DNA of 64,000 bases from Psammoneis japonica. Taxonomy: Eukaryota. The DNA is taken from assembly GCA_008632985.1 (NCBI GenBank), contig QPGO01000053.1:310001-374000 (forward strand), given 5' to 3'. Under the pieces are notes generated by a model. That model ran no database searches. It was given only the letters and a program-made list of their open reading frames with translations, and had not been told where the DNA came from. Made by a program: the position numbers and the translations under genes. This document shows positions 31,500 through 64,000 of the stretch, one piece after another; the first letter of the stretch is position 1; each line of letters opens with the position of its first letter.

Positions 31500-33200
31500 T
31501 CAACTTGGGTGTGCATCTTTGGTTCGTTCTACGTGCAAACCTGACTGCTGTCTCTTAGCAAGCACAACACATTCACTTCCGTCGCCAAAGAAAAGACCAC
31601 CGGTGCCATCCACTCCTTCACATGCCGACTTGAAGGTCACAAGGCATTGAAAGAACTTGTCACAACATGTTCCAATGGGTTCCTTGATGGGGCTTGGGTT
31701 TGGAGATGGCATGGGAGAAAGCATTGGGTAAACGGGCAAATCATTGTTGTCAGCACATTCGCCACCGCGTCCCTGAAAGACTCCACTTGCATCCTCACAG
31801 TTTCCAGGCATCTTGCGCTCACATGTTCCACCAGCAAGAAGGCAGCAGGCACCTTTCCGAGGACAACCTGCACTTTCACAAGTCATGTCATTGCCTTTGC
31901 ACATTCCAGGCTGCAAGGTGCAATCTTCTTCTGAGAGAAGTTTGCATGATTTGTTTGTCTCTGAGTGGCACACCACAAGCTCCTTTCTTCTCTCAATGTT
32001 TTTGAGGGGTGTCAGAGAGGGCATGGCATTGTTGCATGTTGAGTGCTCACCAAGGAAGTGAGCTCCAGCCACACCATTGCAGCTTGACTCTGTGACTTTG
32101 TCAATGCACTCTCCTTCAGGATTGCAGCATGCTCCCGGGACCAGTGGGGTGCCTGTTGGGCTGGGGGGTTGTGGGATGGTGTGGGAAAAAGTGTCGGGCA
32201 AATGCAGGTGGGCAAATCATTCTGTTCTGCAGAAGACTGCACTCTCAATGGGGGAGGCACATGCCAAGGAGGAGATGGCAAGATGTTCAGTGATGATGTG
32301 TTTTGCCCCCAGGGACTGGAGCTTGCTGCTTTGCCAATGCAGCTTGTGAAAGGAAAACTTTGTTCATTTGGGAAACCAGCCCCCTCTTTTACAACTGCAG
32401 GAGGCATTGGAGAGGGAGCAGGAAAAGGGGCAGGAGACAGCATCAGGCAGATTGATGCCCTGTTGTCACCATTGCATCCACTGCTGTGGCCCTCAAAGAC
32501 TCCATTCATGGAGCTGCACATCTCAAAAGTCTTGTGCAGCCACAAACCCCATTGGCAATGCAACAGGCTCCTTTTCTTTGACAACCTGCAAGCTGGCACA
32601 ATGTGCCATCTCCTTGGCATGCTCCCCACCCAAAGTGCAATCTGCCTTGGAATGAAGCTTGCATCTGTTGCTTCTGAAGGGCAAGCAACAAGCTCCTTCT
32701 CTGGGATGCAGCACAGGAGAGGGCACAGGAGACTCATCTGGGAGGGTGTCCGGCAAATTTGTGACAACTCATTGTCATCCACATGTTCCCTGCTCCTGTG
32801 ACCCTGAAAAACTCCACTCCTCTGGTGCATTGCCCCAATGCAGTCTTCTCAAAAGTTCTGTCAGCAAGAAGACAGCCCACAATTTTCCTGGGGCAATGTG
32901 CAGTGTCATCTCCCTTGCATCCTTCACTTTGGCTTGAGAAGTGCAGTCTTTCTCTGAGAGAATGCCACACTTGTCAGCTCCAAATGGCAAACAGCATGTG
33001 CCCTCCATGTCCAAGGGAGGTCCCACCTTGGCAATTGTGATCACACTGTGGCAGCTCACAACTTCCTGGGCAACACCTCTGCACACCTTCATGCGTTGGG
33101 AGTGTTGCTGGTGCCAGGGACTGAACAGCATGTCCCATGTCACCACCAAACTTGATCTGATGCATCTCACTCTCCTTTTCTGCAGCTTTGCACAAAAACT
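31500..33200 (-). pseudogene. Degenerate paralog of the GACC-repeat protein
   Basis: GACC/GTCC repeats with Pro-rich linkers are scattered over several frames (e.g. GACCLPFRSNRC vs intact GACCLKFGDNRC). Lies inside the TpA-depleted domain. Confidence 0.8.
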
Positions 33201-36200
33201 CCCTTGTCAGGGGCTCAAACAGCTAAAACTGGGCAAAGGAACAGTGCCATGAAGTCAACATCCCAGCAGCTGTTTGTCCATGCACTCCAGCTTTCCTTTT
33301 CACCTCCTGGCAAGTGTGTGTCTTGCCCGTGGCATTTTTTGGACAGTTTGTGAGGCAGAAGAGAGTTGCAAAAAACAATGCATGGAAGTGGGGGTCATTG
33401 CACCACAGTTTTTTGTTGCCATCAACCCACAGGGCCCACTCTCCATGGCATGTGAGGTGCTGCAAAAGAGATGTTGACAATGACAGATGAAACTCTCATG
33501 AATTTTGCACACCACACACACCATGTGCAAAATGCTGCAAGAAGGAGGGAAAGAAACAAGGGGGGGGGGGGGGGGGGAGCACAAAGGTGCTGTGCAGCTG
33601 TGAACCCCACGGCAGTGAAACAAGGTTCATTGAGCATGATTTTTGGTGCAATTTTCAGCACCAGGCATTCTTTTGTCATCCTTGCCTGCCAGCCAGAGCT
33701 TGCATTTTTTTTGGCTTGTGTTGGCAACAAGCATTCATTGTGACAAATTGACAAAAATGTTCACTTTGTGCATGTCCCTGCACACACAAAGGTTTTCATT
33801 CAATTAGAGCAGGAAATGTGGCAGGCCAAATTGGTGCTCATGGGAGACTCACCACAGGCTGTGCAGACTGTGCACCTGGAGATGTTCCACTGCATGATGG
33901 CATGCAGCACAGATGCATTGGCACAGCACCTGAGGCTGCTCAAAAACACCTGGCTGCAGGCTTGAATTTTGTGTGCAGCAGATCTGTCACACTTGGTGTT
34001 TCACACTTGAGGGGAGGAGGAGCTCCCATCAGAGAGTGCTGCTGCTCACCCTGTGACAACACTCAGCTGACTTGGACACATCTCTTTCTCCCACTGGAGC
34101 ACAGTTGCAAGTGCAATGCAAGTGTGCAACAAACACAATTGACACGCCTTTTGGGAATGCACCACATTGAGGAATGAGTGGAAACTCTCATTGACTGCAA
34201 CTGAAATTGCCAGAGAATGTGCTGCCAATCAACCAACACCAAAAATGGCTCACTGACATGGCCTGCTCTCTGGACTGTCATTGTTGTGCAATGCAAGTTT
34301 GCAAGAAATGCAGGTGGTTGGCCCTTTGAAGGCACTGCATTGGGCAAAAAGTGGAAGCTGTTTTGTTGGCTGCGTCAAAGTGTGAAATTCTTTGTTTGCT
34401 GGAGCTGCCAAAAGCCCTGGTTTTTTAAGTGCAGAACTTGTCACTTTTGTTGACATGAAAGTTGGCAAGAAAGATTTCTTGGATGATCTGCTTCTGTCCC
34501 TTCCTGGTGCTGTCATTGAAAGACAGCCTTTGCATGATGCAAAGCTTTCAACTCAAGAAAACAAAAAAGTTAAAGCTCAAGCTGTGAGTGGCTGCAATCT
34601 CACACAGAAAAACTCTGATCTAAAAAATCACATGGCTTGACTTTGGCAGAGCATTGTGCATGACAGCCAAAGGAACAGTGAGTTTGAGATCATTGCAGCT
34701 CAAGGTTTGATTGTCAAGTTTGCCAGTTGAAATGAGCCCAGGGCCACTTTCATGGCAAAGAACTGGTGGGAGAAGAGCAGCAGTTGTGGCTTTGCTCAAT
34801 TGAAGTTTCAACTCAAGGTGTGTGACTTTTGTCACACTCAATCCACAGTGCGTGCATTGAGTGAGAAGTTTTGATGCAAACCATGATTTTTTCTTTGCCC
34901 AATGTGTTGTGCTCTCTTGTTTCTTGCAGCAAAGACACACAAGTGACATGCAAAGGAGGGGAGGGGGAACAAGCAAGCCAACTGGCAGGCAAGGAAAGTG
35001 TGTGTTGTGAGCTCATTGTTTTCACACTCAGAAGGTGAACTCCTCCAAGAGTTTTCTGTGCTTTTTGCTGGACCCGGCTTCTGTGTGGACATGACAAACC
35101 ACCTTGTTGGGCTCAACAAAGCTCAGCAGCAGACTCACCTTCAACACCACCAACTCCAAGAGCTTGAGAGTTTGCACAGCTTTCAGGCTTTGCTTTTGGA
35201 GGGTTCAAAGACTCCGAGAACAAATGTCCTCTGTCACAAGGCCACAGCAACAAGTCATGCTGTGCAGGTCAAGGAAAGCTTTTAGGGCCAGCCTGGCATC
35301 AATGCCTTTTGAGCACCACCTCTTGGTTGGTGTTTTGTTGTGGCCCCTGGCTCAACAAAGCTTGTCAATGGGGGCAACATGCTTCAGGAGCAGCAGCATC
35401 AATGAAGTGCAGCTGGTGGGTTGTTTGCAAGGTGTGCTTGAAGGGGCCAAAGCTTCTGGCACACATGTGCTCCAAGTTTGATGTGTGCCCTTGCTGCGGC
35501 ACATGGTGTTGGAGCAACTGAAGCTGATGGCAGAAGCAAGAATGACAGCTTTGTTGCTTGCCAACCCTGCAGCCTTTCCAAGTGGTCAAAAAGGTGTGCA
35601 CTGCCTGTCTTCAATGATGGCCCATTGTCACAGCTCTCTCTCAAATGTCAGCACAGCTTGCACACAGATGCAAGAAGCACAAGTGGCAGTTAGAGCAATG
35701 TCAGGCAGCAACAGTGCACAAAGCAGCAGTGCATCAGCTTGCTGCTCTGGAGCAGTGCCGGCACAACACAAGATGGAGGCTCTTGTTTTGGGTGCAGCAA
35801 GGCACTTTGCTTGTCAAGGACCATCAAAGCACTTTGCAAAAGCCCAAGGATTGAGGCTTTGTGCTGCAATTTTTGCAAAGGTTGCTGTGCCAGAAGGAGC
35901 AATGTCACCTTCTTGAGCAATGGAAGGGCTGTTGGCAGCTTGGTCAGAGGTGCTGCTGGAGGGAGCTGCAGCTGTTGCAGTTTCAGCCAGCATGAGTTGG
36001 GGGGCAAAGTGGCACCCTTGGAGAAGACTCTTTTTGGCAAAGTCAAAGTGCAGTTTTTTATGACTTGTGTTGGTGGGAAACTTCAAATTTTGGTCTTGTG
36101 ACACATCAAATCTCATTGCCATTTTTGCCTGCAGATTTTTTTTTATTTTGGGAAGCTGAGATTTCATGTTTGCTCACATTTTCAATTTGTGTGTGATGGT

Positions 36201-39200
36201 CTTTTTAATTTTAATTTCAAAAGAGACAATGTTTGTTTTGGAACAAACAAACTTCTCACCCAACATCTCTGGGCAAAGCTTGAGTGGCAACAGCATTTTG
36301 CAATCTTGTGCTCACTGCTGTGTGCTTTAATTGACCAGACACAACACCATTTTGTGACATGAACTTGTTCTTGCTGCTCAATTTCCATTGGCCAGCAGCA
36401 CAACTCCATGCAACAAATGCTTGCATTGCCATGAACAACTTGTGTCATCAACTGTCTCAAAGCTCCACAGCCAGATCAAGCTGTCCAGCGGCCCAAGTGC
36501 TGAGCTGGATGATGGCCACTTTGTAAAGACCACCCAAGACCTCCAGAGTCTCATGATGGACAAAAAACCTTCTGCAATGCCAAGAATGCTGGCTGCAAAG
36601 TCATGCTCCTGTTCAACTTTGTGCAGCCCAGGATCTTGAGACTGAGTGCAAAAATTGCCTTTTGAGGCCACTGGCAAATGAAGCTTGTGACAACTTCAAG
36701 ATGGGTGACATTGTGTGTTCCATCTGAGCTCCTAACAAAGCCACAAAATCACAGAGAATTGTGTCTCAAAATGACTGAAGTCAAGCTCAGACAAACATGG
36801 ACAACAACAGCAAATGTTCCAGTGGATGTTGCAGCAGCTTTCAAAAAAAACTTGTGGTTCTGCCATCAGATTCCTGCCCTCCTGGCAAGGACTGCACCAA
36901 GCTTGTGGCCAAAGCCCTGCATCTTGTCAAGATCATGATGCAGATGGGCTGTGGCTGCCCTGGCTGTAAAATGGGCTCTGCCATTGTGTGCAAAGTGCCC
37001 AGTGGAGTTGCCTTCTCTGAGCTCTTCAATCAACAAGCTTCGTCATTTGGGGGCCATGCAAGCAGCCGAAGGGAAAGTGTCATCTCTGCAACCCTGCCAA
37101 ATCTCCCAAGAGCTCTGCTCATGCTGACTGCTGTCCTGCCAAGACAAGTGGTGGGCCAGCTGCAGACAAAAAACTGGCCTGCCTTGTCCCCCCAAGCTCC
37201 CTTGAGAGCAGCCATGCTCCCAATGGTTGCAACTTGACCACCAAGCATGTGCTGTTGTGGGCATTGCCAGGAACACTGACATCCAATGCTGAACATTTTG
37301 AGTTTGCTTGCCCTGCATGCAAGAACCAAGCTGGCACAAAAATGGTCAAAAGAAGAAAGACCAAGACACTGGCAACTCCAACAAGGACACTCGCCCTCCA
37401 AGAAAGAGAAACCTTCCAAGCCTGTCTGGCATTTTGCCAACATTTTTTGTGACATGCTGACAAGAACAAATGCATGGTCTAGAAATGACTTGACAAGTGT
37501 GCCAACAGACAAAGAAAGTGGCAAAACTGGGACAAGCCAAAAGGGCCTTCAGCTGCTGAGTGGGCTGGTGCAAGCACCCTGCCAAGTCCAGCACAGGTGC
37601 TTTGACCAATTTTTCCATTGCGGGCCCTTTTTCAGGTGCTCCATTTGGGCTGCAGCAGTGCATGATCCTGGCCACTGCTTCAGCAAGCAAACTCCTGCAG
37701 ATCTGAGGCACTGAGCCCAAGCCCATCCCTTTCACAATGTCAGCTCCTTCTTTGACACACAGGGCTGCAAAAAGATGCCCTTGGACAATTGCTCAAGAAG
37801 CCAGCTTGCTGTTTTGACTCAGCCAAAAAGTTTCTGCCCCCAGAGCTTTTTTTTCTTTGACAAAAGTTGTTCCCCATGCTTCTTGGCTCTGTTGACACTG
37901 CTCCCTGGCAGGATCCTGGCCAGGCTGCACCTTCAAAATCTGCAGACAGAGTTGCTGCCCCCACCCAAGCCCCTCCCCTTGAGGCAGCACCCCTTGCCAC
38001 TGCTCCCCAAGCTCTGCTGAGTCTTGTGCATGGCCAGCACATGATGGGGAAGCACAAAATGAAGCTCCCACTTCTGTGCTTCCTGCACATCTGTTTGCCC
38101 CAATTCAGGTGGCTTGCCCTCCTTCCGTGAACCCTGCAACCATCATTGTTCTGCAATGTTGACACATCTTGCGCACAACAATCATCTGGATGTTGCCTGT
38201 GCTGCTGCCCATCAAGTCATCAGCAGGCTCTCATTTGCTCCCAAGGTCTCTCTCTCTCTCTTGCAATTGCCACTTGGAATGTTTTTTGTCATTTGAACCC
38301 ATGGACCAACATCTCAGCTGTCATGAAAGTGTGCATTTTGAGTTGCTGCTCCCCAGCATTGAAGACTGTGATGCACAACCCAACTTCTCTGTCAAGTCAC
38401 CAAGGGCACACCACTTCTTGTGCAGGACATCTGGCCATTGCATGGCCATCCAAGCTGTGGCCTCTTTTTGCACTTTCTGTGATGGAAGCCAAGCGTGTTG
38501 CTCTCTCTGAAGCAGCACACAGTCTCATTTCACTGTGCATGATTTTCAGCAAAGTTGGCGCACGCACTTCTTGTTCCTGCAGCTCAGCCATCAGAAAACA
38601 AGATCATTTCCCACACACCAACAGGCCCCCTTTCCCCCATGACAATGATGATGGGGCCAAATCTCAGCCCATTGTCTGTGCCAACTCACCTTCATCTGTT
38701 GTGCACGAGCGCGATGCTGCTTGTCTTCAACTTGCTTGTGAGCAAAAAACAAATGCCAGAGCCAAGCACACAGGCACTCCACACTGCTGGCTCTGTGCTG
38801 AAGCAGAGGCTTTGGCCCAACTGTCTCTGCTGCAAAGCCAGCAGACCAGCTCAATGAGGGACATGGGTTGGCAACTGCGCACCCCATTTTGGTTGAGAGG
38901 AAGAGTCGTGAGTCTGGCTTGCAGATGGGCAACTGCACTTGAAGTGTCGCACCAGCCAAATTGTCATGCACAATGCAAAGAGGAATCTCCTCACACTTTG
39001 AGTCATTGCAGTGCCTTGTTGTCTTCTGCTGCATCTGTCATCTGCTGTGCCACACTGCACAACCTCAAGAGGCACCTTGTCTTCCACATGAGTGCTGCAC
39101 AACCCGAGTGTCAAGAGATTCTCTCCCCCTGGGTTTCACATGGAGGTTTTTTCTTCTCCACAAAAGCACCAGCATGTGGCAAAGTGGAGGCCATAAGATG

Positions 39201-39290
39201 ATTCAGCTTTTCTCTTGCTGCACTGGCTGGAGTGTGCGACTGTGTTTCGGTTGAACACGAAGCGACAAGAAAATCCCACGAGCGGGCGGC
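31540..39290. other. TpA- and CpG-depleted hypermutated domain 1
   Basis: About 20 TA by eye in ~7.7 kb: one in 31741-33180 and none seen in ~37490-39190. Track ORFs are nearly Tyr-free and rich in Cys/His/Gln. Confidence 0.9.
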
Positions 39291-39594
39291 GGTAGCGTTC
39301 TTTGTCACGTCTGTGCGTTGGGAAGGATGCAGATAGAACGACGTCTTCATACACAAGACGAAGATCGAAAGCTGCTACGCAACAGTTACGACAGACTATG
39401 TCAATGCTGTTGGACATATTGTGCACAATACATGAACGCTTTAGTTACTGCTATATCCAAACTCCATAGACGGCATCTTCTTCAAAGCCAGCTCGGACAG
39501 CAGCGGGAGACTGAACACAGATGCACTTGCAGCAATAGAATATCGACTTCAACGCTTCGCCGTCTTCTCTTGCGGCAGGTTATTCGCTACTCTC

Positions 39595-41695
39595 CTAACA
39601 GGAAATGCCTTTGTCACTGCAAGTTGTGCCGCGACCCTTGAAGTTTCCTTTTATTCTGTCGCATGCCGACTTTTGGATCTTAAGACAATTTCCATTCTTG
39701 CAGCAGGCTCCATTCCTTGGACAAATTTCATTCTCACACGTCGTGGCATCTCCTCGATAATCCCCAGCACATTTCGACGCTGTACGGAGTTCGCATCTGT
39801 TATCTCCGAACTTCAAACAGCAAGCTCCCTTATTGGGGTCCACTGGCTGTGGAGGAGGAGGGGGAGTGGGAGGTGCCGTTTGACGCTTGTCACTCCCAGG
39901 GCATTCAATACTCTCACAACTCGTTCCAAAGCCCTGAAATTTGCCACTGAGCCGATCAATGCACCTGTTTCTTTTCTGATTAGGGACACAAATTCCTGAC
40001 TCTCGGCAGCATCCGCCCCTCTCACTGCAGCGGGCTGATACGCAGGTCTGAAACAGCAAAACGCAGGAGCGAGTGGCGTTTAGGATCAGAATCATTCAAA
40101 CAATATCATATTCGACAATTCTTACCTTTCCAGCCTGGAATATTCCATCCAACTTTTCACACGAGCCCTCCGTGACATCTTTGCATTCTCTCCTGTTAAC
40201 AACAAGCGATCATTACAAGACGTTCCGCTTAAGAAGCACTTAAAGGAATAAACAAAATGATGTATGCAGATAATCGATACGTACTTGTACTTCAAGCAGC
40301 ATGCTCCAGGTGGGTCGCAAATTCCAGCGCTGCACTCGGTGCCAAAACCCTTGAAGTCACCTGAAGATCATTCAATAAACGAGAAACAAAGTTTGAGAAC
40401 ATAAGTAGTGACACAGAGCCGCATCCTTCTGTGGTTATGAAAGCACTCACCTCCGCACCACTTCTTCTTGATTTTATTGCACACTTTCTTTCCTTTCACA
40501 GTCGTGCAGCAAGCACCTTTCAGTGGGCATGTCTTTTCATCACAGGTTGTGCCCTACAGACAATATTAGAAAGATACACGACACAGAGGTAAATTGAGAT
40601 GAAAGACTTCCAAATGAAGCCAGACTCACTGCCGGTAAAACAACGACGGCAACTTACAGGTCCTAGGTAGACGCCCGTCTTACAGAATTTTGGCTTGATA
40701 ACGTCACAGTTTCCGCCCTCTAAGTCACAGCAGGCACCGCGAGGATTGCATTTCTTATTGGCAGGCTGGGGAACAAGAGCACGACGAACATCAGTTCACA
40801 GACGGTTTCAAAAACGAAGAATGAAATCATATTGTGGGAGGGACTAACTTACACATTCGGTTTTGGAACCCGTGAAAAAACCTCCCTTGTCATCGCAGAC
40901 CTTCCTTCTTAGCACAGCGCAAGATGCATCAAGCAAGCAGCAGGCGCCTTCTTGGCAATCGCCACACGTCGTACCCTCGCCCGCGAAATCGCCTAAATAT
41001 TTGAAATGGACACGAGTGTTATCAGAGGGATGCAAACGAGACGTAGTCACTAAAACATTACTCATTACTGACGTACCTTTCTTTTTGTCACACTCAAACT
41101 TCCTCGCTAGGAAGCATTGTCCGTCTGGATCGGGATCGCAACATCCCCCATAAGCTTCTGGGCATCTGTCGGCACGACAGGTGATTCCATCTCCAAGATA
41201 TGCGCCGCCTATAGAATCGCAACTGCTTTCGTCGAGCCACGTGCAAACCGGTGGATTTGCAGATGGTTGACAACACCCTCCCTTAGGAGGGTCAGTATTC
41301 TGAAACATGTAAAGATAAACAGAAGCAATGAGAATGCAAAAACAGTGAACGAAAACAGTTGAAGCGTTTGGATTCGCATACCGTCAGGATCCGCTGAGAC
41401 CCAGCCTTTGATAGAAGAAGTGAAATTACAGAGTAGAAAATGTGAGAACAGGAAATAAAATCATGCTATCATCGTGATAGTTGCTAATTCACTCTTACGT
41501 ACGTTGGAAGAGGCACCGTCCTTTGGTCCGTACTCCGCCGACACGTCTGAGGAAGAACACAGCGTAGGAAAGCAAATTCGTGAGCCATTCCTGTCTACTC
41601 GAAACAAGTGGCGCCAACATTAAACGTTTCATACCTGTCGCCTCGCAAAGAGCAAACGCAACCAAGAGCAAAAGACCGTTGTAATTGAATTTCAT
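39595..41695 (-). CDS. Secreted cysteine-rich protein with tandem G(A/G)CC repeats, 10 exons
   Basis: Signal peptide MKFNYNGLLLLVAFALCEA. Nine GT-AG introns splice into one frame (…ASSN|AGSQRILT|NTDPPKGGCC…). Repeats GACC-x5-8-C-x7-C-…G.(Y/F).G.GTTC. Stop TAG at 39595. Confidence 0.85.
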
Positions 41696-43026
41696 CTTTG
41701 TCTTCGACTCGATACTTGTTACTAATCTTACGAAATTCTTTTTTGTGAGATGGATTCCGGGGCGCCACGATCAACACAAGATTGTGACGCGAATTGTCGT
41801 AGTGCGGTTGTGCCGAGAGAGAGTCTTTTGGTGGTCACGAACCACCTCATATATTAAATGATATTAGTCCCTATGCACTTGCGTAGCTTTTCTTCTTTTT
41901 GATTAATGACTGTTCTTTTAAAAATGATTTGTCGCTATCAGAAGTCATAGTCATATGATCAATTATAGACATCCATTACATAAGTCATAGATTTTATCGG
42001 ATTTCAAAGCAGTATGGTGTAGTCATACTATAAATGTTGCTCCACATTTATACTCTAGCAGGTCATCATCCGGCTTACTTAGTTGCTAGCTTGCAGAGTT
42101 TTCTTCGAGACTTTTCGTTATTGGTCAGATCACTCATCCATGTCCTTTCGGCGCAGAATCCTGTGGTTTTTGTACTGGAAATAAAAACAATTATTGCTAG
42201 TGACCGAATGACCATGGCATCTGATGCGACGACTCATTCGACGAGCTCGTGTGCACGCTCGGGAAACGCACACGCCCACACAAGTGGAATCATGGATTCC
42301 TCCTCCTTGATTTGTTTCCATGCAAGGCTTCCTCAATGCACTCCGCTTCAAACAGTGTGCTCTCCAGGATTTGGGTGCAACAGGAAGGTGTCTCTTGATT
42401 GGGAGCTGAAGTGCTGAGCTGCTGTGGTCTGTGGTGTGACAGCGAGGTGGATGACCGGATGGCGTGTCCATCGACGACAACTTTGGGCCCATCAAAGGGG
42501 CGAAAAAGGTGGCATGAATCACAGATCATTGCCCCCCGCACTGAGCCATTGTGTGCACATCTTCATTCATTGGGTGGACCCCTTGCTGATTAAATGACAC
42601 GGCCACTTGTTGGAATCTCACCTTTTTTGTTTGTTTGCACGGTGCCCGCGTTTGTCCTTCATCTGATTGTTGCCCACAGACACTGTGGTGTTTTTTTTGT
42701 GTCCCCACTTCAACCAAACAATTGACGCACCTGACTGGCACATGTTTGTGGATGTTCCAGCATTTTCATTGTGTGCTCTCTTTCTTCATTTGCACTCAGC
42801 GACATTTCCAATTTCCAGTCGCAAGCTGGGCATTTGATGTGTTCGTGTTGTTTGATGACACAACACATTTTGGTGGCAGCATGAATGGCAGTGTGATCAT
42901 GAACACATGCTGTGCATTGAGTGAACTGAATCACGTTGAAAACACTTTGTCTTTCTTGTGATCATTTCACGGCAATTTTGCCATGTCAATTTTTGCTCAC
43001 TTCATTTTTTTCCGAAATCGACACAG

Positions 43027-43286
43027 GGCCTGTTCCAGCTCCAGGTGCTCCTCGCGGGTTCGATTCCCATCATTTGGAAATTTGTGCATTTGGCACAATT
43101 GACTTTTTCCAAATCCGTTTTTTGCCAAATCAAAGGGCAAGTGCACACTTTACATGTGTTTTCGGGTGTGCACTCACCTTTCGATTTTCGAAACGATCAA
43201 AATTGAAGGAGTTGATTGCGCTAAACTGCGCAGAAAATCGGCCTCTCGAGTGATGAAAAGCAGAGCACCTGGAGCTGGAGCAGGCC
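43027..43286. mobile_element. MITE-like element, 260 bp with 24-bp terminal inverted repeats
   Basis: ggcctgttccagctccaggtgctc (43027-43050) vs gagcacctggagctggagcaggcc (43263-43286), 23/24 match. No clear TSD. Confidence 0.75.
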
Positions 43287-43479
43287 ATTGGGGAATTCAC
43301 GCAGCCTCACTCAGCCTCCATGGCCCTTTTTCCTTGTGACCATGTGTCTGATTGCATCACCTCCACCATCCCACATTGCATGAGACAAGTCCGTTGATGC
43401 CGTTGTCTCCGCTGATGATTGTTCCAAAGACTGCAATAGCAGCGTTTGTCTTGACACTTCTTCACGTGATGACACACAT

Positions 43480-47149: not shown

Positions 47150-47410
47150 GGTGCAACAAGTGCAAGTCACCAGGGTGCAGCTGCCCAAGCCACCCAAAGT
47201 CACCAGGATGCACAAAAAATCTCAACTCGCCAAAAGTGCTTCTGCTCTAAATCCAACCACCCGCCCAGCCGCCCAGCCACACAGCGGAGGGCAATTTTTG
47301 GCAAACATGTCTCTGCTCACATGCATGGGACATTTGTCCATTTGCCAAGCCAGCTGTTTTTTTTTTGAAACATTGAAAAACAAGCAAAGAAACAACACCC
47401 AGCCACAGTT
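47150..47410 (+). repeat. Dispersed repeat copy A (partner at 62780-63005)
   Basis: Shared ccaggatgca…aatctcaactc…gcaatttt(t)ggcaaa..tgtctctg…ttgtccatttgccaagcca. Confidence 0.8.
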
Positions 47411-50420: not shown

Positions 50421-50448
50421 TGCGGGCGCATGCACGTGCAGAAAATCT

Positions 50449-51125: not shown

Positions 51126-54100
51126 GTGTCTCATGACATTTCTCTGCAGGGAAGAGACAGCGACGGCGATGGTGATGATTTGTTCAACACCATGCTTCGC
51201 GATCTCGATGATGCTGATGGCAGACACGAGGCAGCTCACAGCAACAACGAAACTGCTGTTGACCTCACCGCATCAGAAAGTGACGATGACGTCGCCTCGG
51301 CAGCTGTGGGGCGAGTGAAGGACCCTCGTGACCATGTGCACGACTCTGGCATGGCTGTCGACCTCACCACAACCAGCTCATCAGAAAGTGACGGAGACAA
51401 TGGATGGTCCATGAATGATGGCATCGCCTCAGCAGATGCGGGTCAAGTCAAGGACCCTCGTGACCGTGCGCACGACTCTGGCATGGCATCCGCAGCACGC
51501 AAGCATGGTTGCATGTCCAAGGAATCAGAAATGTTGGTTGCTCATGGTTGTTTCTGTTTCTCTTGTTTCATTTTATTTTCAGCAGCTGTGGTTTCATTGC
51601 CAGTGGGCAACATTGCATCCAGCACACCGGCTCCTTTGTCAATGCAACCTGCTCCTGTGTCTCAATCGCCACCTGAACGCCGCAAGAAGAAAGCTCCAGA
51701 ATCCCGTTCCAATGGCAGGGATGGCAGTGGAGACTGGTTCCCATTGTGGTCTGCTCCGTCATCAGACTCGGCGATGCAGCATTCAAAAATGCCTTCCGCG
51801 TCTGAAAAGCATGTCATCGAATTGTGGAATGCTCCAGATGGATTTAAGTTCCTTGTCAACTCGTCAGTGTCAAATGTGGTCATAAAATGCTGGGACTGCG
51901 CCGACCATGGATGCTCGGTGCAGGTGAAGATTGAGCGTTCCGGCTCAACACTTGTCAAAGAGCAACGAGGAGCACACAACCACCCCCCGCCCGCAGGAGG
52001 AATGCCTGCAAATGCAACAAACCCGCCATTGCCACGGCCTGCCCCAGCACGCAAGTGGCCAGCAAATGTGGAGCTCTCGGACTGCCTTTTGCAGCATGCG
52101 GCAAACATGGAACAAAACACACTCGAACAGCATGGCTTGGAGGATGAAGCCATGCTGGATCAAAAGATGCGTCCTGTGAAAGCCTTGCGCGCCGCCGCTC
52201 CCAATGTTGGGAATGCAAGTGTGCCGCCAACTTTCAATTTGCCGCATGCTCCAAAAATGATCTGACGATTTTTTCCTTTCTTTTTGCAATGGGCAAATTG
52301 TCAAATTTGAGGAGTCATGCTCCATTCTCTGAAAATGTTTGCTGCTGTACACAATGAAGGCCAGCGAGGGAGAATGCGAGTGCAGCATCAGCCGTGCTTC
52401 TAGGCCGTGTGGCATTGGACGCCACAACATTGAAGGTGTCGGTAAATGGACTGCCAAGCTCATGGTGGAGTGCAAGCATTTTCAATCTCTCTGTTGTACG
52501 ATGTGGCTTTCTCAGTCATGCTGCAGTTGCAAGGAATGACGTGCTTCAATTGTCACTGCTGGAGAGTGTTGGAACAGCCACACAATCAACCTCAACATTG
52601 TCACTGGCATGGTGATTGTTTGCATTGGCGTCACCAGCACAATGGTGGATCACTGGCATTGTGGGTGCATGCACCTGTCATTCGCATCGGCGCTGCCTGC
52701 ACATCGCCTCCAGCAGAGCACAATCTAGAAACTGATGTGTGCTTGTTAGTCAGATCATGGCATGTGACAACAGCATCGAGCGCAACTGCAACATGTTGAA
52801 AAAACCATCGTTGCCGATGTCGATCATGCTCCGTGTGTGGAGACGAGTGCGATTGTGGTGTGGATCACCAACCGTGATGTTTCACTCCATGGCGTTTGTC
52901 ACGATCCGTGGCATGATCACGATCCGTGTGCATGCCGCCCTGCATGGCAGTGACTGCTGCAGTCTGCAAATGAAACAGCAAGTTACTTCTTTCCTCTGGT
53001 TCTTAGAACATTTGCATCTATGATGATTCAAGACAATGATGACGCAGACTCGCCGCCACCCAATCTGGAGGGTTGGCGTTTAGCGCGTTTTCTTCCTTCA
53101 CCCACTTCTGGTTCATGTGGCACCACAACAGATGATGAGAAACACATTGTTGAGACACTGCAGCGGATTGAGAATGACGGACTGCATGGCATCCATCAGG
53201 GTCAACAGAACAACAGGCTGTGCTCGTTGATTTGCCAATCTCCAAATTGTCATGTTGGTGCCAGGATCCAGCGCTTTCCAGGGAAGCTCGGCATGCATTT
53301 GCCGGAGGGACAGCATCACAAGCAACATGATGAAACACTGGCCAAGGGCCTCAAGAAACCAGCATTGCGACAGGTGCAAGAAAAACCGCACATGAGTCGG
53401 GCGCAGCTGTGTGATCACCTGAAAGGGTTGGGGTCGCACAACAAGTCGAAGTCAAAAGAAAAGCAACCTCAAATCCATTGCAAATGCAATGAGAGCAAAG
53501 GGAGCAACAAAGCAATTTGTTGATGGTGGCACATTTGACAACCTGGAGGAGCTAAAACTGTCCCTCGATTCACGTCGCCAATCCATTGACGAGTTTCTAG
53601 CCGGAAGGAATGAAGCGGAGCCTTCTGTTGCAAGACTGCCTGCAATGAAGGCGGAAGACCCACTGCGAAACATTGCAGTTCTTGATCATGACGTTGATGA
53701 TGGCACTGACGGGCTGCATCAAGATTGGTCTCACATCATTTTTGCATTTCCAAGTGCTCGAATGGTGCTTGAGAATGTGCAACAGCTTTGGAAGACCGGG
53801 AAGGTGCAACTTGAGATGGACCATGCAAAAGGTTTTTGGGACAATGATCTTCGTCAACTTGGCATGGTGGGAATCAGTGACGCCAACAGAATGTTTTTTC
53901 CGCTCGTCGTTGGCATTCAAAAGGCAGAAGACAGTGATGGCAGTGCTGCCATTCTGCTTCGTTCAACAGAAATGACATTGAAGAGTTGAGGAATGCCGTG
54001 CACATGCCTGAAAGATGGTTCCCTGGCACTGGCCAATGGCGCCAATCAGGTGCAGTTGACTGACATGGATTGCTGGGCTCACTTTGTCCGGGTGCCATTT

Positions 54101-56334
54101 GCACGGGGCGGAGGTTGTCGCGGCTCCAAAGGATCCTTCTCCTGGCACATGCTTGAGCAGAAGTTCCCAATGGAGTTCGTGTTTGGTGTTCTTTCTTGCT
54201 TTTTTGCTTTCTCGCACCTCACCACAGCACACAACTGGGTGATGGCAAGAAGACTGTACAAGGATGAAAACCCTGAGCTTCCGGACCACTTCTGCGCACA
54301 GCACCCACCACTTTTCCCTGGATTTGGGTCAGCATGTCATGAGCCAGGGGAGGCACAATCGGGCCAGGGACTTGAAAGAACTTGGGGGCACCTAAAAGAC
54401 CAAAAGAGAGACTGTGACAAAACAAATAAAACGGCCGACATTGAGTCAATCTTTGAAGCCACATCAAGGTGGGAGGAAACGCATGCCGAAGATGCCTTTG
54501 CTGCCGAGCCAACAACACCAAAATCCGGGTGGGATGTCATTGCGAATTGCCACAGAAAGGATGCCGGCATCGATTTCAAGAGCTGCGCACACTGCTCGTT
54601 AGAGACCTGCCAGCCATTGACGCGCCAGGAAGCAATCAGAAAATCAGCGATCGTTGGTGGATGCGTGGTGCACATGCCAACCTTCCACTTCTGTTCAGCG
54701 TGGAAGGAACAAGCCATTGACCGGATGGTTGGTGTGGATGATTCGACAGGGGGATTGACAATTGAGCAAATCACCATACAACAAGAAGCCAAGAAGAAAA
54801 TGAATCAAGCATGCACATCCGCTAGACCCACTCCAGTCAAGTCTGCGTTCATGGAGATTGTTGGCACCCACCTTCTAAACAACACGCTGTCACCTCTTGA
54901 AGGGGAAGACTGCCGTTCATTCCTGTTGCGACGGTCTCAGCACTTCATTTCAGTGAATCAAATGGGGTTACATGGAAAGAAGAACCAAGGCAAGAAAAGA
55001 GGAAGAAAGGTGAGACGAGTGATCACGAATTAGATTTGGAAAACAAAAAGTGGGAAGCTGACGCTGGGGCAGAATTTGAGAGCAACTTGCAAAGAGAACT
55101 GCCAAAGGATGCAAACAAGGATGCTGAAGAGGAATCAAGAGCTCGTGCATTGTTGTCTGAATTAAAAGAGTCGGCGCAACAGATGCCGATGGTTCAACCG
55201 TCTCGTGACGCCAACCGTGACTCGGTTTCGACAAAGCCAAGGCACCACAGGCTGTGCAGCCGGGCTTGCGGACACTTCAAGGAAACAACCGTTCGAGCAG
55301 GAGTGCACGCTTTGTGCAATTGTGAAGTGTTCATGAGAAATGGTTGGTGTTGCGACACCCTCATCCACAACTCAGTGGAGCTCGGGGAAACACCACCAGC
55401 AAAATGCCGCGATGCCGACGGCGTCGGTTGGGACAACATCAGAATTGGATGGACAAGACAGTTGATGAGCACCGTGTTTGGTGGAGAAGGGGAAAAGAAC
55501 AATGCAGCAAACATGCACAAGACTCACTTTCCAGCAGTTGATCTGCTCTTTCACTTCCAATCTGTTGTTGAAGCTGTGCCGGTTCCATGGATGGCAGACA
55601 TTGACACCAAGGAGCCAAAAACCCTGGGCATCACAACAGCTCGCAATGCTCACACAAACCAAGCATGCGTTGCATCAGTTCAGCCAAATTCAAAGGGAAG
55701 AGCAATTGTGGACGATGTCACAGTGGGGGTGAACGGAGTTGCTGTTGTGTTGCAGGACGATGGATCCCTTCTGGCGGGGCACAAGCTGGATTGCATTGTT
55801 GACATGATCAATCGCTGCAAGGAAGAGAGTCGCATTGTTAGATTCGATGTGCTGCGCAAGCACAGGAAGGGGCAAGAAGGGCAAACGCATGGCTTGCCGC
55901 ACAGTTGGAAGTTTTCAAAAAGTTGTTTGCAAAAGAGATGGGGCTGAAAATGGCCACGCGATTCACGTTGAGCGAAGGCAACAAGGGCATGGGAACAGGT
56001 CTTTTTTGCGACAGCAAAGGGGGGTGAGCTTGCACCCAGGCCTGGGTTCATTTCGGAATCTCCATCCGGCATGGTCAGGTTCCTGGGACTGCAAAAAGGA
56101 AGAACCCCCGATGGAGATGTTGGCGGCAAGTTCCATGACGCTGTGATGCAACTGAGGAAACGTTTCAACTTTCAGCCCCTCGATTGCTCTCATGGTCGAA
56201 ACTGCACCCTCGTTGACGGAGAGGACAATGAGGAAAAGCCACTCATTGTTGATCTTGAGCACTGGAAAGATCTTTCCAAGAGGAAACAGTTTGGAAAGAC
56301 TAAACTTCCGTGGTGTCCATTAGGATTTCTATGA
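51126..56334 (+). mobile_element. Mutator/MULE transposon relic (WRKY-like Zn finger, DDE transposase, SWIM)
   Basis: CADHGC…GAHNH zinc finger. LEMDHAKGF, CLKDGSLAL, DCWAHF (CxxH) and GLERTWGHLK give the MULE D-D-E layout. LCNCEVFMRNGWCC is SWIM-like. Interrupted by stops and frameshifts. Confidence 0.72.
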
Positions 56335-56499: not shown

Positions 56500-57560
56500 C
56501 TGTATGTCTTGTCATGTTTCACCACAATCCGTCGTCGTTTTGGCAAGAACAAGAACACAGCAGCCAGGTGACAAGGCAGCAGTGATGGATTCAATGACAA
56601 AACCCGCCTCTTGCGCAAGCTCGCTCCATTCACGCTTGGTCCGTGCTCGCTCACAACCCAGCAACAGGTGCAAAACATCCACGCACAGTTGTAGATTGTT
56701 GCTTCCAGAGGCATTGCTGGGCAACACGGCTTCACCTGTTGCAATCTTGCCATCTTGTGGCAAGGCAGCATGACAAGATTTGAGAATGTCAATGGATTTT
56801 TGTTCGCTCCACATGCACTCATCAAGAACATGTTTCATGAAAATGGCATTGCACCCTGGAATGGTGGATGAATCAAACACACGTCACCAGCAATCAGCTC
56901 GACCATGTCATTTGCAGAAGCGGGTGCCGACTCCACCACCTCAGCAAGATCAAGGCATTTGCACTTGACTTTGGGAATTTGCAAGCACTGTGGCATCCAC
57001 CGACATTGACAACCATCTTGCCCGAGAGTTGATTCCAAACAAATCCTTTCAACACAGCCTCAACCTTGCCGTTGTGACATGAATCACCACCAATCCAAGG
57101 GTGTGCGCTGTTTGTCTGCAAAGACTTTGAGCAACAGCATCAATGGCTGAACTGTTTCGCCAAACTCAGAGGAAACCACCAATTTAAAGATGATCCAGTG
57201 TGCTGGGGTGAGATTCTTTCATGCTTTTGAACAACTCAAGGGTTGGCTGGAGATGATGTGAAGGAGGTCAACAAGCACATGATTGCCTCTGGTTGGGCCA
57301 AATGAAAGTGAGGACATTCCAAGCAATGCAGCCCATGCTGTTGTCGCCAAACTTGACAGGACGAATGACGTCAGCAAATGACAGCATTTTCAAGAAAGAG
57401 CTGGAAGGAGCACACTCAACACCACTTGCACAGCCACCTTTCCAGCAACCCACACTGCTGTCCTCCAAGCAAGCAACCTCAAGCAGAAAAAGCAGAACAC
57501 CAGGCACAAGCATGTCAGCCTTCAAGATGAGAGCTGTCCAAGGACATTTTGTTTGCAGCC
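56500..57560 (-). pseudogene. COMT-type O-methyltransferase pseudogene
   Basis: Fragments across frames: KMVVNVGG, CLDLAEVVESAP…ELIAGD, FDSSTIPGCNAIFMKHVL…WSEQKSIDILKSCHAALPQDGKI…EAVLP and RARTKREWSELAQEAGF. Confidence 0.8.
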
Positions 57561-58149
57561 TGTCCAGATGTGCATGTCAAGCAAGCTGGAAATGTGAGTC
57601 AAGGCATGTGGGCCCACTTCTCAAGCTTTTCCATGGTCGCTCTCTGATGATGTGATGAACCTCAAGAGCTGGGGTGGCGTTGAGCCCATTGTCTTGAGGC
57701 GCGAGAGGAAAAGGCAGGGGTGTGTGTGTTTCATGTGGCTCCAAGGATGAGAGCAACATTTGTTGTCAACTTTTCTGTCCCTGTCATGTGTTTTGTTGAC
57801 AAGAGAACTCCAAAAATCAGCCAGAGGATGCAAAATGACCCAGCTCCCAGTTTTGTGCAACAGCGCAGCAGATGCATGCGCAAGCTCTGGGGGGAGGGCA
57901 ATTGAGAGCCTCTGGTTGTCAACAGCTTTGACTGCAGAGACAACTGGGTTTGTGTGTGTGTGTGCGGTTCTGTCCAAAGCAACACAACAAGAAAGGGGCT
58001 TCTTCTCAGGAAGAAGCTTGATGGCAGGAAAACAAAGGGCACGTCATTGGCATCAAGCAAGCTCCTTGGTTGCTTCAGGAACACAAATGAGAGAGGGCTC
58101 CTCCAAGAAGGCTGTCAGGCTCCTGCTGCAAATGACCATGCAAGCAGCG

Positions 58150-58610
58150 TCATAAAATCGCCAACTCGATTGCAGTCCTGTTTGCAGCTCGATTGCGGAC
58201 TGCGATCGAAACGACTGCAATCTGCTGATTGTTTGTCTGGCGCTGGTCACAAAGATCGCAGTCGTGTTCGCGATCGATCGCGATCGATTCGTGTCTAAAA
58301 TTCAGTCGTGAATCGGGATTTTCATCGCACACGGGACTAAAAATTGACCGAAAGGTGGCACACATTCACGAAAAATGCGTCCTTGCGCAGAGGGCGCCCC
58401 TGCGTGGGGCGCGCGAATTCCGCGCGGTGGCCCAATCACGATCGCGATTGCAGTCGATTGTCACACGTGGCAAGCGCGCGCGCATTGCGATCTTTTGATT
58501 GCTGCGAAGCCGCGTGCAATCGATGGTTGCAATCCGTGATTGTTGGGAGAAAGTTGACGATTTTGTGACACTGCATGCAAGGCATTGCAGCTGAAGATTG
58601 CAGTCATCAG
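58150..58610. repeat. CpG-rich array of cgatcg/cgattgca-type motifs around a GC hairpin
   Basis: Many cgatcg, cgattgcag and cgactgcaatc units in both orientations. Hairpin gcgcccc-tgcgt-ggggcgc at ~58394-58412. Confidence 0.65.
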
Positions 58611-61049: not shown

Positions 61050-62130
61050 AATGTCTCAGATTTGAAACTTAAAAAAATGTTCAACCTGGCTGCAACAGTG
61101 TGTGGTGGATGGGTTTTTGAACTTCCCCATGCTGCTTTGTCTCCTCCACCCCAAGTTGATCTTCTAGAGACATTTGTTGACCAACTGCATGCCTCGCCAG
61201 CTTGGGATGGGCTGTGTGGTTTGCAGAGGAGGAACTGTGCACATCTCCAGACACTTCGGTGCAGTGCACTTCATGCCATTGACCCTTGCAGCTGGCAGCA
61301 ATGGACCAGCAAATGAAGGTGCTGCCCTTGGTTGGACAATTGCACACAACAGAGTCCCATCGGTGGATTGTGCAGGACCAGTTTTTAGAAAACAACCATC
61401 ATCCTGTCAAGCAGAAAAGCTGATCTTTCTTTTCATTTGTCATTTTGTGGAATGCTGCAGAATTGAACTGATTTACAGAGTGGATGTTTTTTGTGACAAC
61501 AAAGCTCTGGTGACTTGCTTGGATTGTTTGTCTCTCACTTGTCCTGCTCCAATTTCTCCCAGAAGAATCCAACAATGACCAAGACTTCTGCTTGAGACAC
61601 CATGGGCAGAGCCAAGAATGCTCTTGCTTCCAATTGGGACATTGTCAATGAAATGCTCCATGCAGGGATTCAACCAGAAGATCAACGCCAGGGTGCAACT
61701 TCTTCATCCAGCCTCACAGTTCAATGGGTCAAGGGCCATCAAGACAGACACATGCCCCTCTCCACGCTCTTCCCTTGCCAGCCAGAGTGAATGCAAGAGT
61801 GGACAAGTCAGCCAGTGCTTGCCAAGGTCATTGTCCAAGAGATGCAATGCAAGCAAAGCTGGTTCCCCATTGCTGCTCACATTTGGCAGTGGATGAACAA
61901 GGCACATTGACTTCAAATTGTGCAAGAAACAGATCCGGCATGCAGCCACTGCACCCCAGTCATTGGAACACATCTCCGAGTGCAATCAGTGGCATCCTGA
62001 TGTTGCAGCATTGACAGATTGGGAATCTCATGCAGTGCTCATTAAATGACACTCCAAGAAACATGTCAATGCGGCCAAGCTCTTCCACAACCTTCTTCCA
62101 ATGAACAAGATTGCTCATTGGCAGTGAAAT
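61050..62130 (+). mobile_element. Non-LTR retrotransposon relic, RNase H region
   Basis: SNG…LGWTIA…CAGPVF…PSSCQAE (SSYRAE-like), VFCDNKALV, NWDIV, QWVKGHQD and ARVNARVDK occur in the RNase H motif order, across frameshifts. Confidence 0.65.
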
Positions 62131-62779: not shown

Positions 62780-63005
62780 TGGAACAAGTCCCAAGCCACC
62801 TGAGGAAGTTGCCAGGATGCAAGGAATCTCAACTCACACCAAAATCAGGTGCTGGTGCTAAATCAAGCCACCCACCAGAGAGCAATTTTGGCAAATGTGT
62901 CTCTGTCCATGTTTGGGGCACTTGTCCATTTGCCAAGCCAATTGTTTTCTGGAGATGTCAAAGAAAACAAGCCAAGAGCCAAGACCCAGGCATGGACACG
63001 CAATT
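62780..63005 (+). repeat. Dispersed repeat copy B (partner at 47150-47410)
   Basis: Same shared sequence as copy A. aagtcacc/aagttgcc and aaacatgt/aaatgtgt differ by CA vs TG. Confidence 0.8.
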
Positions 63006-64000
63006 GAACAACAGGGCAGGCAGGGCCACGCAGGCTCTGCCGCAGGCTTCAACAATTCGTCCTCGTTCAATCAGCGCAGGACCAGTTGCTGGCCGGCCTC
63101 CCATTTCCAGTGTGATTGTACATCGACTGCGGGGACTTCGAGTTTTTGTGTGCTAAATTTCACGGGGCGGAGCTTTTTCAACGCATCGATCCAAATCTGC
63201 ACCACGCACCGTGTTGCATCTTTTCAAAAATCAACATCCATTGGTGCACGTTCTAAGGTGTGTCACAATGGCACATGTCCACTTTGTCTTGCTCCTCTTG
63301 TTCTTGCCAATGTTGTCTTGATCTGCTGTTCTCTTCTTTGATGCATGCTCTTTTGTCACTTGTTCAGATTTGACCATGAGCTCCGTTCTGAACGCTGCTT
63401 TTGCACTCCCCTTCGCTCTGTGATCTGTGGTTTGCTTTCTGTGTTTTTGGCACTCGACTTTGGCTCAGGCATGGACAACCTTTTTCACAAGATTCTTCCA
63501 CGTGCACTTCAGCGATGCAATGGTCAATCGTTTGCTGCTGTTCTCTTGGGCTGTTTTCAAGAAGGAGCGTCGCAAAGCCTCGTCTCCCATTGCCTTCTCC
63601 ATGCAGAAGTCAAGAAAATCATTGCCACGACGTTCAAAAGCTTTTGCGACACAGCACCCCCGCATCTGATGCAACAGTGTCTTTGCAACTGTAAAATGAG
63701 GCTTGGAAACCAAGGCAAGCCAACCCATGTTTCGACTTTGTTCTCCTCGTGAATGACAGTTGCTCATGTGATCGTCGTCCAATGTCGCTTTGTTGTGAAA
63801 GATTCTCATGCTGTCTAAGAATTCTGTCATGTCTTCAAGGGCTTCAATGGATCTCCATTTTCTGCCACCGTGAAAGCTTCTTCCGAAGAGAAAATGTCGC
63901 CCAACCAAAGAATCGAATGACCTTGCCGTTTGCGTCATCCTTCTTTGGCCATGCATTGGCAAAGTCTTTCTTCTGCATGCTTCGTTTGGGTGCCGAGAAA

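Follow-up and report, generated by a model that had tools for sequence, protein, structure and literature searches.

How does a chromosome come to lose nearly every TA dinucleotide over many kilobases and keep them in the genes alongside? This question is raised by a stretch of 64,000 nucleotides from the diatom Psammoneis japonica (assembly GCA_008632985.1, contig QPGO01000053.1, positions 310,001 to 374,000 of the forward strand), which is referred to here as the window and in which all positions are counted from its first letter. A preliminary description of the window proposed that TpA is erased in its repeat domains by A:T-to-G:C changes, through a genome-defence system resembling fungal repeat-induced point mutation (RIP). 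The evidence presented below is probably best explained by domains of targeted TpA hypermutation lying beside a separate decay of CpG. In this explanation, a TpA-specific A:T-to-G:C process would turn TA into TG where A is changed to G on the top strand, and into CA where A is changed to G on the bottom strand. Two domains of the diatom DNA, from about 31.56 to 39.29 kb and from 42.2 to beyond 64 kb, would bear the mutated relics of transposons, repeats and dead ordinary genes, and a distinct process converting CpG to TpG or CpA would overlap the first and vary from block to block.

TA Erasure in Two Bounded Domains

The first 31 kb of the window are of normal composition, with observed-to-expected ratios (o/e) in 1-kb bins of 0.34-0.76 for TA and about 0.6-1.4 for CG. 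In the bins at 32-39 kb and 43-64 kb, TA o/e falls to 0.00-0.14, and TG and CA reach 1.4-2.1. Domain M1 (31,560-39,290) has 18 TA between 31,600 and 39,190, close to the "about 20 sites in 7.7 kb" of the preliminary description, and domain M2-M4 (42,250-64,000), which continues past the end of the window, has 91 TA left (counted over 42,250-63,998). Altogether, 109 TA are present in 29,340 bp, where the density of the normal neighbours would predict 1,180, and each of 200 mononucleotide shuffles of the erased DNA contained at least 1,857. TA erasure is near saturation: about 9% of TA remain. Stretches of more than 1 kb that are wholly free of TA occur four times, and the longest measures 1,714 bp (37,480-39,194); the maximum in the normal part is 228 bp. 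The G+C content of the erased domains is unchanged at 0.44-0.52, and their other dinucleotides of A and T persist, with o/e of 1.23-1.32 for AA, 1.20-1.32 for TT and 0.71-0.98 for AT. Recounting therefore upheld what the preliminary description had reported of the composition, namely the near-absence of TA from about 31.5-39.3 and 42.2-64 kb, its TA-poor runs over 1 kb, the enrichment of TG and CA, and the ordinary G+C with persisting AA, TT and AT.

The domains are sharply delimited. Dense TA ends at 31,556 and returns at 39,194/39,293, and the final TA ahead of the second domain lies at 42,198. The border intervals are accordingly about 31,556-31,729, 39,194-39,293 and 42,198-42,591, each with normal DNA alongside, and erasure halts within about 100-400 bp of the neighbouring normal genes. 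No obvious terminal repeats were seen when the border sequences were inspected by eye.

The missing dinucleotides are accounted for by their transition products. Per kilobase, the erased DNA has lost 36.5 TA and 34.1 CG (70.6 in sum) and gained 74.5 TG and CA. Both strands were struck about equally, with TG/CA counts of 796/796, 730/817, 897/930 and 547/536 in the four blocks. The process yields no stop codons, and strips TAA and TAG: these two together drop from 17.8 to 2.9 per kb, and TGA climbs from 19.5 to 24.3 per kb. Because TAA and TAG have been erased, long open frames are found on both strands. Between 31,600 and 64,000, stop-to-stop frames of 150-459 aa occur in either orientation, and 36 frames of at least 150 aa overlap 31-64 kb; spurious calls by gene predictors are likely across 31,600-64,000.

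Tyrosine Loss in a Transposase Relic

The direction of the change can be read from a putative DDE-transposase relic at 53,056-55,896 on the plus strand, which combines an RNase H-like core with a PDZ domain at its C-terminus. The frame of this gene is broken near 53,450 and 54,960. For the frame at 53,990-55,030, a word search returned a single homologue and a full HMMER search returned 64. The closest full-length homologue, P0123 (1,027 aa), aligns to 53,056-55,866 as three segments separated by two shifts of frame, which identifies the copy in the window as a broken gene. Since the relic keeps open frames of 190-350 aa and 46% identity to a homologue, it is not ancient.

In eight columns of the alignment, Tyr is shared by half or more of 13 homologues; in the window these columns are occupied by His (four), Cys (three) and Phe (one), and never by Tyr. 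Homologues under the same treatment keep their Tyr (7 of 7 in P0001, 11 of 13 in P0123, 9 of 11 in P0124 and 8 of 9 in P0125). Similarly, at the 24 sites where at least two of 8 homologues have Tyr, the window has nine His, five Cys, six Phe and one each of Ser, Asn, Trp and Asp, again with no Tyr, and the 21 Tyr of P0123 align to nine His, five Cys, four Phe and three other residues. His (TAY to CAY) and Cys (TAY to TGY) are exactly the two residues that a single change of TA to CA or to TG would yield at a Tyr codon, and as both products are present within the relic, both strands were struck in one gene. Judged from these protein columns, Tyr was lost by mutation, in genes that were once functional.

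The relic belongs to a family of proteins of about 1,000 aa (P0123-P0185), with 64 representatives in public metagenomes and genomes. Pfam scans of 15 homologues (10 at E 0.001, 11 at E 1) gave nothing above threshold, and a PDB sequence profile for the family found no match. The predicted model of P0123 (pLDDT 76, pTM 0.75) contains an RNase H-like core at residues 305-555, which scores a Z of about 10 against retroviral integrase cores and a Z of 10 over 242-249 residues against the P element transposase. Foldseek related the model to the IS256-family ISCth4 transposase (probability 0.96-0.98, E 0.009-0.02) and found the PDZ domain at its C-terminus. The relic is a DDE transposase by predicted fold only, and its family looks like an unnamed transposon superfamily branch. 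Assignment to the MULE group was considered and is weak, as the match of P0167 is sub-threshold (E 0.021) and the MULE/SWIM neighbours in the ESM Atlas score merely 0.77. DNA of unmutated relatives was detected neither in the metagenome contigs scanned nor in viral contigs (P0123 query).

Duplicated Copies, Copy Number and Read Support

Evidence of a different kind comes from a local direct repeat on the plus strand, whose copies lie at 48,922-49,434 and 49,911-50,420. The two copies are 80% identical in four letters and 93% identical in a purine/pyrimidine code. Transitions outnumber transversions by 65 to 20, and 15 of the 110 shared YpR steps are double steps in which CA in one copy stands opposite TG in the other. 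In a control pair of genes from normal DNA, at 20.7 and 23.3 kb, the corresponding values are 145 to 155 and 1 of 149. Where TG stands opposite CA, the ancestor must have been TA or CG, and each copy must have changed it on its own; hypermutation must therefore have followed the duplication and occurred in this genome. The comparison of the two copies thereby indicates a change that happened in place, after duplication. A purine/pyrimidine-coded self-comparison yielded only short or doubtful further pairs.

The same exchange is seen among further copies in the genome. Multi-copy repeat families occupy 42,650-49,500, where many diverged contigs of the read set align, up to 31 at one site; copy number was judged by counting distinct diverged contigs, and summed word depths were not used. 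At 43-49 kb these copies differ by 67 A>G, 77 G>A, 57 C>T and 68 T>C changes, compared with 81 transversions, and adjacent paired changes swap TG and CA between copies at 43,715/6, 43,890/1 and 45,208/9.

A different picture emerges for the first domain. Two long contigs cover 29,001-42,631, with no diverged contigs among those listed, and no second copy of 31.6-39.2 kb at 85% likeness or above was found among them, copies below 85% likeness being undetectable in this comparison. The description of the affected DNA as RIP-like repeat domains thus holds for the multi-copy region at 43-49 kb and is not borne out, at this level of likeness, for 31.6-39.2 kb, and a dependence on duplication, as the term "repeat-induced" would imply, finds no support here. 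The aim of the process would seem to be silent or foreign chromatin rather than duplicated sequence as such.

The preliminary description had asked whether the pattern exists in raw reads, and it does: contigs built independently from the reads of one public sample, possibly the assembly's own source, match 29,001-42,631 (13.6 kb) with 0 differences. This check excludes assembler error, and is not independent biological support.

Sequence Context of the Surviving TA

The few surviving TA are distributed very unevenly among sequence contexts (chi-square 138, 9 degrees of freedom, p 2e-25). Relative to normal DNA, retention is highest for TTAA (0.46) and CTAA/TTAG (0.31), and declines through CTAG (0.12), GTAA/TTAC (0.10), ATAA/TTAT (0.09), GTAC (0.055), ATAG/CTAT (0.046), CTAC/GTAG (0.018) and ATAC/GTAT (0.011) to zero for ATAT, with 0 of 123 expected-class sites. 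A model in which the A of each strand is struck independently, according to its 3' neighbour, gives an acceptable fit (chi-square 11.8, 6 degrees of freedom), with a per-strand survival of 0.72 before A, 0.36 before G, 0.13 before C and 0.11 before T. Furthermore, the excess of TG peaks in NTGC and NTGT and is lowest in NTGA. Together, these patterns point to 5'-T-A-Y-3' as the target, with 3' neighbours in the order T, C > G > A. If T is the base that mutates, the same rule reads 5'-R-T-A-3', and in the present data T-to-C change at R-T-A is inseparable from A-to-G change at T-A-Y.

A Second Process Removes CpG

The erased domains are also low in CpG, a feature that the preliminary description missed. 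CpG o/e is 0.07 at 32-39 kb, 0.34 at 43-50 kb, 0.63 at 50-59 kb and 0.32 at 59-64 kb, and a finer division reveals blocks of very different character. The CpG-free core of M1 (31,900-38,100) contains 18 CG in 6,201 bp (o/e 0.03-0.10); the ratio is 0.20-0.45 at 43.5-49 kb, 0.44-0.86 at 50-56.5 kb, 0.07-0.15 at 60-62 kb and 0.67-0.82 at 63-64 kb. The block at 58,001-58,500 stands apart, with a CpG o/e of 1.28 and 45 CG, yet just 3 TA.

As CpG in this last block is undecayed although its TA are gone, the erasure of TA must be independent of local CpG decay; the block itself may have escaped methylation as an island, or may have been inserted very recently. More generally, TA is uniformly low while CpG o/e spans 0.03-1.28 by block, and two separate processes are therefore required. 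In M1, the loss of TA also outreaches that of CpG, by about 0.3 kb leftward and about 1 kb rightward. The TA process was probably the faster and the broader of the two, and in the explanation favoured here it would be far faster than CpG decay.

The CpG loss itself is probably the ordinary decay of 5-methylcytosine in methylated, silent DNA. Such decay accounts for the conversion of CpG to TpG and CpA, for the variation between blocks and for a weak context effect; on composition only, CpG o/e of 0.03-0.86 by block and a matching gain of TG and CA are observed for the CpG part alone. However, 5-methylcytosine decay cannot remove TpA, and TA loss is uniform here where CpG loss is patchy, in accordance with the earlier view that this decay is unable to explain the TA deficit. 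The context dependence of CpG retention is weak (p 0.006 and 0.03), and a TCG context, considered as a rule of retention, is likewise weak and is left uninterpreted. Diatom transposons have been described as CpG-methylated, and diatom DNMT4, an enzyme of unknown function, as related to RID, the RIP enzyme of fungi (PMC9998398). This kinship could bear on the CpG part only.

The Spared Island and Other Affected DNA

Between the two domains lies a spared island (39,300-42,198) of normal composition, with o/e of 0.59 for TA and 0.96 for CG, and of 0.58-0.68 for TA at 40-42 kb. It holds one Cys-rich modular gene, at about 39,350-41,600 on the minus strand, together with flanks that include a TA-dense upstream region. 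Because this upstream region has been kept beyond the reach of coding selection alone, the borders of the island would reflect either targeting or the later insertion of the island.

The intact island gene has a dead paralogue inside the erased DNA, at 31,503-32,848 on the minus strand. At the aromatic position of its Cys-rich module, the five modules of the relic have His once, Cys once, Phe three times and Tyr never; the six modules of the intact gene have three Tyr and three Phe. The divergence between the two was too high for a DNA alignment to be tabulated. The module follows the pattern C..C..G-x-[YF]-x-G-x-G-x-x-C and its family has no Pfam match; an ESM Atlas search with the Cys-rich gene was uninformative. 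Likewise, an O-methyltransferase C-terminal fragment at 56,515-56,883 on the minus strand (Methyltransf_2, E 3.5e-13) reads SCH where solved plant enzymes have a conserved NCY, a change from Tyr to His.

Four peptides had been quoted in the preliminary description as cases of Tyr replaced by Cys or His: WCFNTCNN (43,722-43,745, minus strand), LHAD (43,662-43,673, minus), SSCQAE (61,399-61,416, plus) and GMCKGND (31,887-31,907, minus). All four strings exist; GMCKGND alone can be compared with paralogous modules, and in the other three a Tyr ancestor is putative.

Little else in the erased DNA is recognizable. Pfam searches gave 0 families for the six frames of 31.5-42 kb with X at stops and 0 for 14 long frames, and the O-methyltransferase was the sole significant match among 94 stop-to-stop frames of at least 90 aa from 42-64 kb. 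No viral genes were found in the Pfam scans of 31.5-64 kb or in a scan of viral contigs with P0123. The affected DNA thus comprises the transposase relic, multi-copy repeats, the O-methyltransferase fragment, a dead paralogue of a host gene and unrecognizable DNA (as at 33-38 kb). In terms of foreign origin these targets are mixed, with the transposase relic and the repeats on one side, and the O-methyltransferase fragment and the dead host-gene paralogue on the other.

Flanking Genes

The genes of the normal part are intron-poor and include CCB2/CCB4 and Sad1/UNC genes, two PLP-dependent dehydratase-like genes and a fused AMP-binding/type III polyketide synthase gene. For one of them, the best named relatives come exclusively from diatoms (Odontella, Grammatophora, Cylindrotheca, Thalassiosira, Cyclostephanos and Cyclotella), with a top identity of 71%; by such similarity, the flanking genes are diatom-like, and they come from a diatom that had no near relative among the sequences compared. 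The PLP-dependent dehydratase-like genes form a tandem pair on the minus strand (20,643-21,659 and 23,257-24,279) with 68.5% DNA identity, and their relatives outside diatoms are bacterial threo-3-hydroxy-L-aspartate ammonia-lyases at 55-60% identity. Next to them, 24,592-27,189 on the minus strand forms a single open frame of 865 aa that combines AMP-binding/DIP2-like domains with a type III polyketide synthase, the latter having chalcone/stilbene synthase N and C domains.

At 30,556-30,632, a contig of run X2 (recorded as 'DNA?') skips 77 nt with GT..AG ends. The skip marks out an intron and joins the frames at 29,154-30,560 and 30,374-31,189, so that X2 resembles a transcriptome. A further X2 contig lies at 40,553-41,030, inside the spared island. 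Within 31.7-39.6 kb there are no X2 contigs save scraps of 36-37 nt, and the missing cover is not taken as evidence.

A small patch within otherwise normal intergenic DNA, at 15,535-15,937, bears the same signature as the erased domains. Runs of 228 and 155 bp without TA, longer than any others in the normal part, lie in this patch, which shows 4 TA and 13 CG in 500 bp, with TG/CA o/e of 1.5-2.0. This patch may be a short hypermutated insert.

Alternative Explanations

The Tyr columns, the paired copies, the balance of TG and CA and the borders together bear out the claim that the TA deficit is mutational, proceeds from TA to TG or CA on both strands and is sharply bounded. Such a deficit could be produced by other means, of which the main chemical rival concerns thymine. 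A dioxygenase of the TET/JBP type might oxidize the T of R-T-A in silent chromatin to 5-hydroxymethyluracil (5hmU) or 5-formyluracil, which would mispair with G and lead to T-to-C change. The outcome would be indistinguishable here from A-to-G change at T-A-Y; 5hmU in dinoflagellates is enriched at TpA and TpC, and 5-formyluracil does mispair with G. We nonetheless regard this route as unlikely, since near-complete conversion demands very efficient mispairing, and within the window, to which the analysis was confined, neither such a base nor such an enzyme is in evidence; the authors of a preprint on a comparable case in the alga Bigelowiella natans, discussed below, also prefer deamination of A. 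A somewhat smaller chance still is given to the absence of any dedicated system, whereby a long-standing local bias of mutation or repair in heterochromatin would slowly bring TA, and with it CG, to an equilibrium with TG and CA. The CpG decay in the same domains does fit old, silent DNA, and a rate cannot be derived from composition alone. However, TA is equally gone where CpG is intact (58.0-58.5 kb) or mildly decayed (0.55-0.86 at 50-56.5 kb), the borders are sharp to within 100-400 bp, and the transposase relic is not ancient; moreover, the rate in B. natans is put at about 1000-fold over background, and is episodic.

The remaining possibilities carry very little weight. Editing of adenosine to inosine at the RNA stage by an ADAR- or ADAT-like enzyme, followed by reverse transcription and insertion of the edited copies, would agree with the 5' U preference that is typical for RNA adenosine deaminases. 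Yet the strands are equally struck, the CA/TG swaps between local duplicates arose after duplication, and one continuous domain spans the relic of a DNA transposase, dead host-type genes and intergenic DNA, so that this route is hardly credible. Error-prone patch repair of the DNA polymerase eta type, which the preliminary description offered as an alternative, changes A to G at WA, which stands for both TA and AA. Of these, AA is undepleted (o/e 1.23-1.32, compared with 1.15 outside), AG is not raised (0.89-1.13, compared with 0.98), and T-A-A is the least mutated context; the suggestion is therefore set aside as most improbable. Equally remote is the notion that no mutation took place, the DNA being either foreign, with a native avoidance of TA, or an artefact of sequencing or assembly. 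This notion is left some room by the possibility that the assembly was made from the only run in which the DNA occurs. Against it stand the Tyr columns of 13 homologues that appear here as His or Cys, the frame-shifted transposase gene, the mosaic of unrelated elements that are all TA-free, the independent read assembly with its 0 differences over 13.6 kb, and the local nature of the effect, with normal genes on either side.

Several points weigh against targeted TpA hypermutation as it is proposed here. Its polarity rests on protein columns and paired copies rather than on a polarised nucleotide spectrum. The ancestral frequencies of TA contexts were estimated from the genic DNA alongside, which is no more than a stand-in for that of transposons, and part of the surviving TA may be new mutations instead of survivors. 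The predicted occurrence of the His product after a purine is just a trend (6 of 9 His versus 1 of 5 Cys, Fisher p 0.27), and the 4/4 result of a smaller set is not to be over-read. Insertion of the spared island after an old burst could equally have yielded the sharp borders. The evidence is drawn from one 64-kb window, outside of which lie genome-wide extent, deaminase repertoire and chromatin state, and the sole sample containing the stretch may, as noted, be the assembly's own. Finally, the preferences known for ADAT enzymes (U-A-G/A in fungi; GAA and TCG in amphioxus) are unlike T-A-Y, which makes the assignment of an enzyme weak.

Relation to Known Systems and Candidate Agent

A search of the full-text literature found one description of TpA-only hypermutation, which concerns viral DNA integrated in the genome of Bigelowiella natans (Mettrop et al., bioRxiv 10.64898/2026.01.13.699255, 2026-04-14). 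In mutation-accumulation lines of this alga, 231 of 302 single-nucleotide mutations are reported to fall in integrated giant-virus and virophage regions, where nearly all are A>G or T>C and every one is at TpA; the rate there is about 1000 times background, in some lines only. The genome contains 124 clusters that are poor in TpA and rich in CpA and TpG, and 324 TpA-free coding sequences (CDS), enriched in DDE and reverse transcriptase (RT) domains. The pair ADAT2/ADAT3 is proposed there as the agent. The main text of the preprint makes no mention of CpG, context, trinucleotide or diatom, and does not state the T-A-Y rule.

The likeness to the domains described here is close: only TpA is affected, the products are TpG and CpA, discrete regions lie beside normal DNA, a single-copy region is a possible target, TpA-free CDS are rich in DDE and RT domains, and many targets defy annotation. 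The two cases differ in that the host there is a chlorarachniophyte (a rhizarian) and here a diatom (a stramenopile), and in that de novo mutations were observed there, whereas composition and comparison are the evidence here. Furthermore, the targets seen here consist of repeats, dead genes of host type and the relic of a transposase, with no viral gene found; erasure here is near-saturated over at least 29 kb; and CpG loss accompanies that of TA. We consider that the two are probably the same kind of process. The preliminary description knew of no such process in diatoms, and a literature search for RIP-like or TpA effects in diatoms indeed found nothing relevant; the process as such has, however, been described in the 2026 preprint. 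TpA-only hypermutation is thus already known from one rhizarian alga, and the diatom footprint is a new case.

The comparison with RIP of ascomycetes is more distant. Both leave domains of near-saturating transitions in transposons, with sharp borders, a dinucleotide rule and unrecognizable relics. In RIP, however, C becomes T, mostly at CpA, with TpA as the product, and this dinucleotide is destroyed here, in the opposite direction; RIP makes stop codons, whereas TAA and TAG fall here; and RIP requires duplicated DNA, whereas the 7.7-kb block here has no second copy among the contigs listed. Deaminase editing as a defence, with a dinucleotide signature in the relics, is also known from APOBEC3 and ADAR in animals, but these act with strand polarity on single-stranded cDNA or double-stranded RNA, and not on both strands of resident chromosomal DNA that includes non-retro elements. 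A role of the diatom process in genome defence may be supposed.

The agent would be an ADAT2/TadA-type enzyme that deaminates adenine in polynucleotides and acts on T-A-Y in DNA of silent chromatin; among the mechanisms considered we find this one the most likely, at less than even odds. The natural site of TadA is U-A-C, which T-A-Y includes, so that the TadA/ADAT-like deaminase of the preliminary description stands as a reasonable candidate, the enzyme itself being inferred. As is proposed for the process considered here, ADAT2/ADAT3 enzymes convert A to inosine, which is read as G. The fungal Tad2/Tad3 enzyme edits hairpin loops of sexual-stage mRNA with a strong preference for U at -1, often in UAG or UAA (PMC11087585, PMC10962958, PMC11156358), and deamination of DNA by an ADAT2/3 is proven by the amphioxus BjADAT2/3, of which BjADAT2 preferred GAA and TCG in E. 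coli (PMC10354150). The differences are that the fungal enzyme edits RNA, whereas the target here is T-A-Y in chromosomal DNA, on both strands and across whole domains.

Implications

What is new here is the T-A-Y context rule, the independence from CpG decay, the borders that hug normal genes and the near-saturation of the erasure. Domains erased of TA conceal transposons from homology searches, inflate gene predictions through long open frames ended by TGA only, and can be mistaken for foreign DNA by methods based on composition. The saturated footprint in a diatom suggests that such hypermutation occurs widely in algae that are ecologically dominant. Should the agent be a natural T-A-specific deaminase acting on chromosomal DNA, it would be of interest both to the biology of genome defence and to base-editing technology. 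We would go further only with some doubt, and suggest that diatoms and chlorarachniophytes, and perhaps the wider stramenopile-alveolate-rhizarian (SAR) group, share a natural, chromatin-targeted editor of chromosomal DNA that makes A:T-to-G:C changes at 5'-T-A-Y-3' on both strands of silent or foreign DNA of any copy number. This editor would greatly outpace 5-methylcytosine decay, and would remove Tyr codons and the stops TAA and TAG while introducing no stops of its own. If this were true, genome defence would include a principle other than that of RIP, and the adenine base editors made by engineering would have a counterpart in nature.

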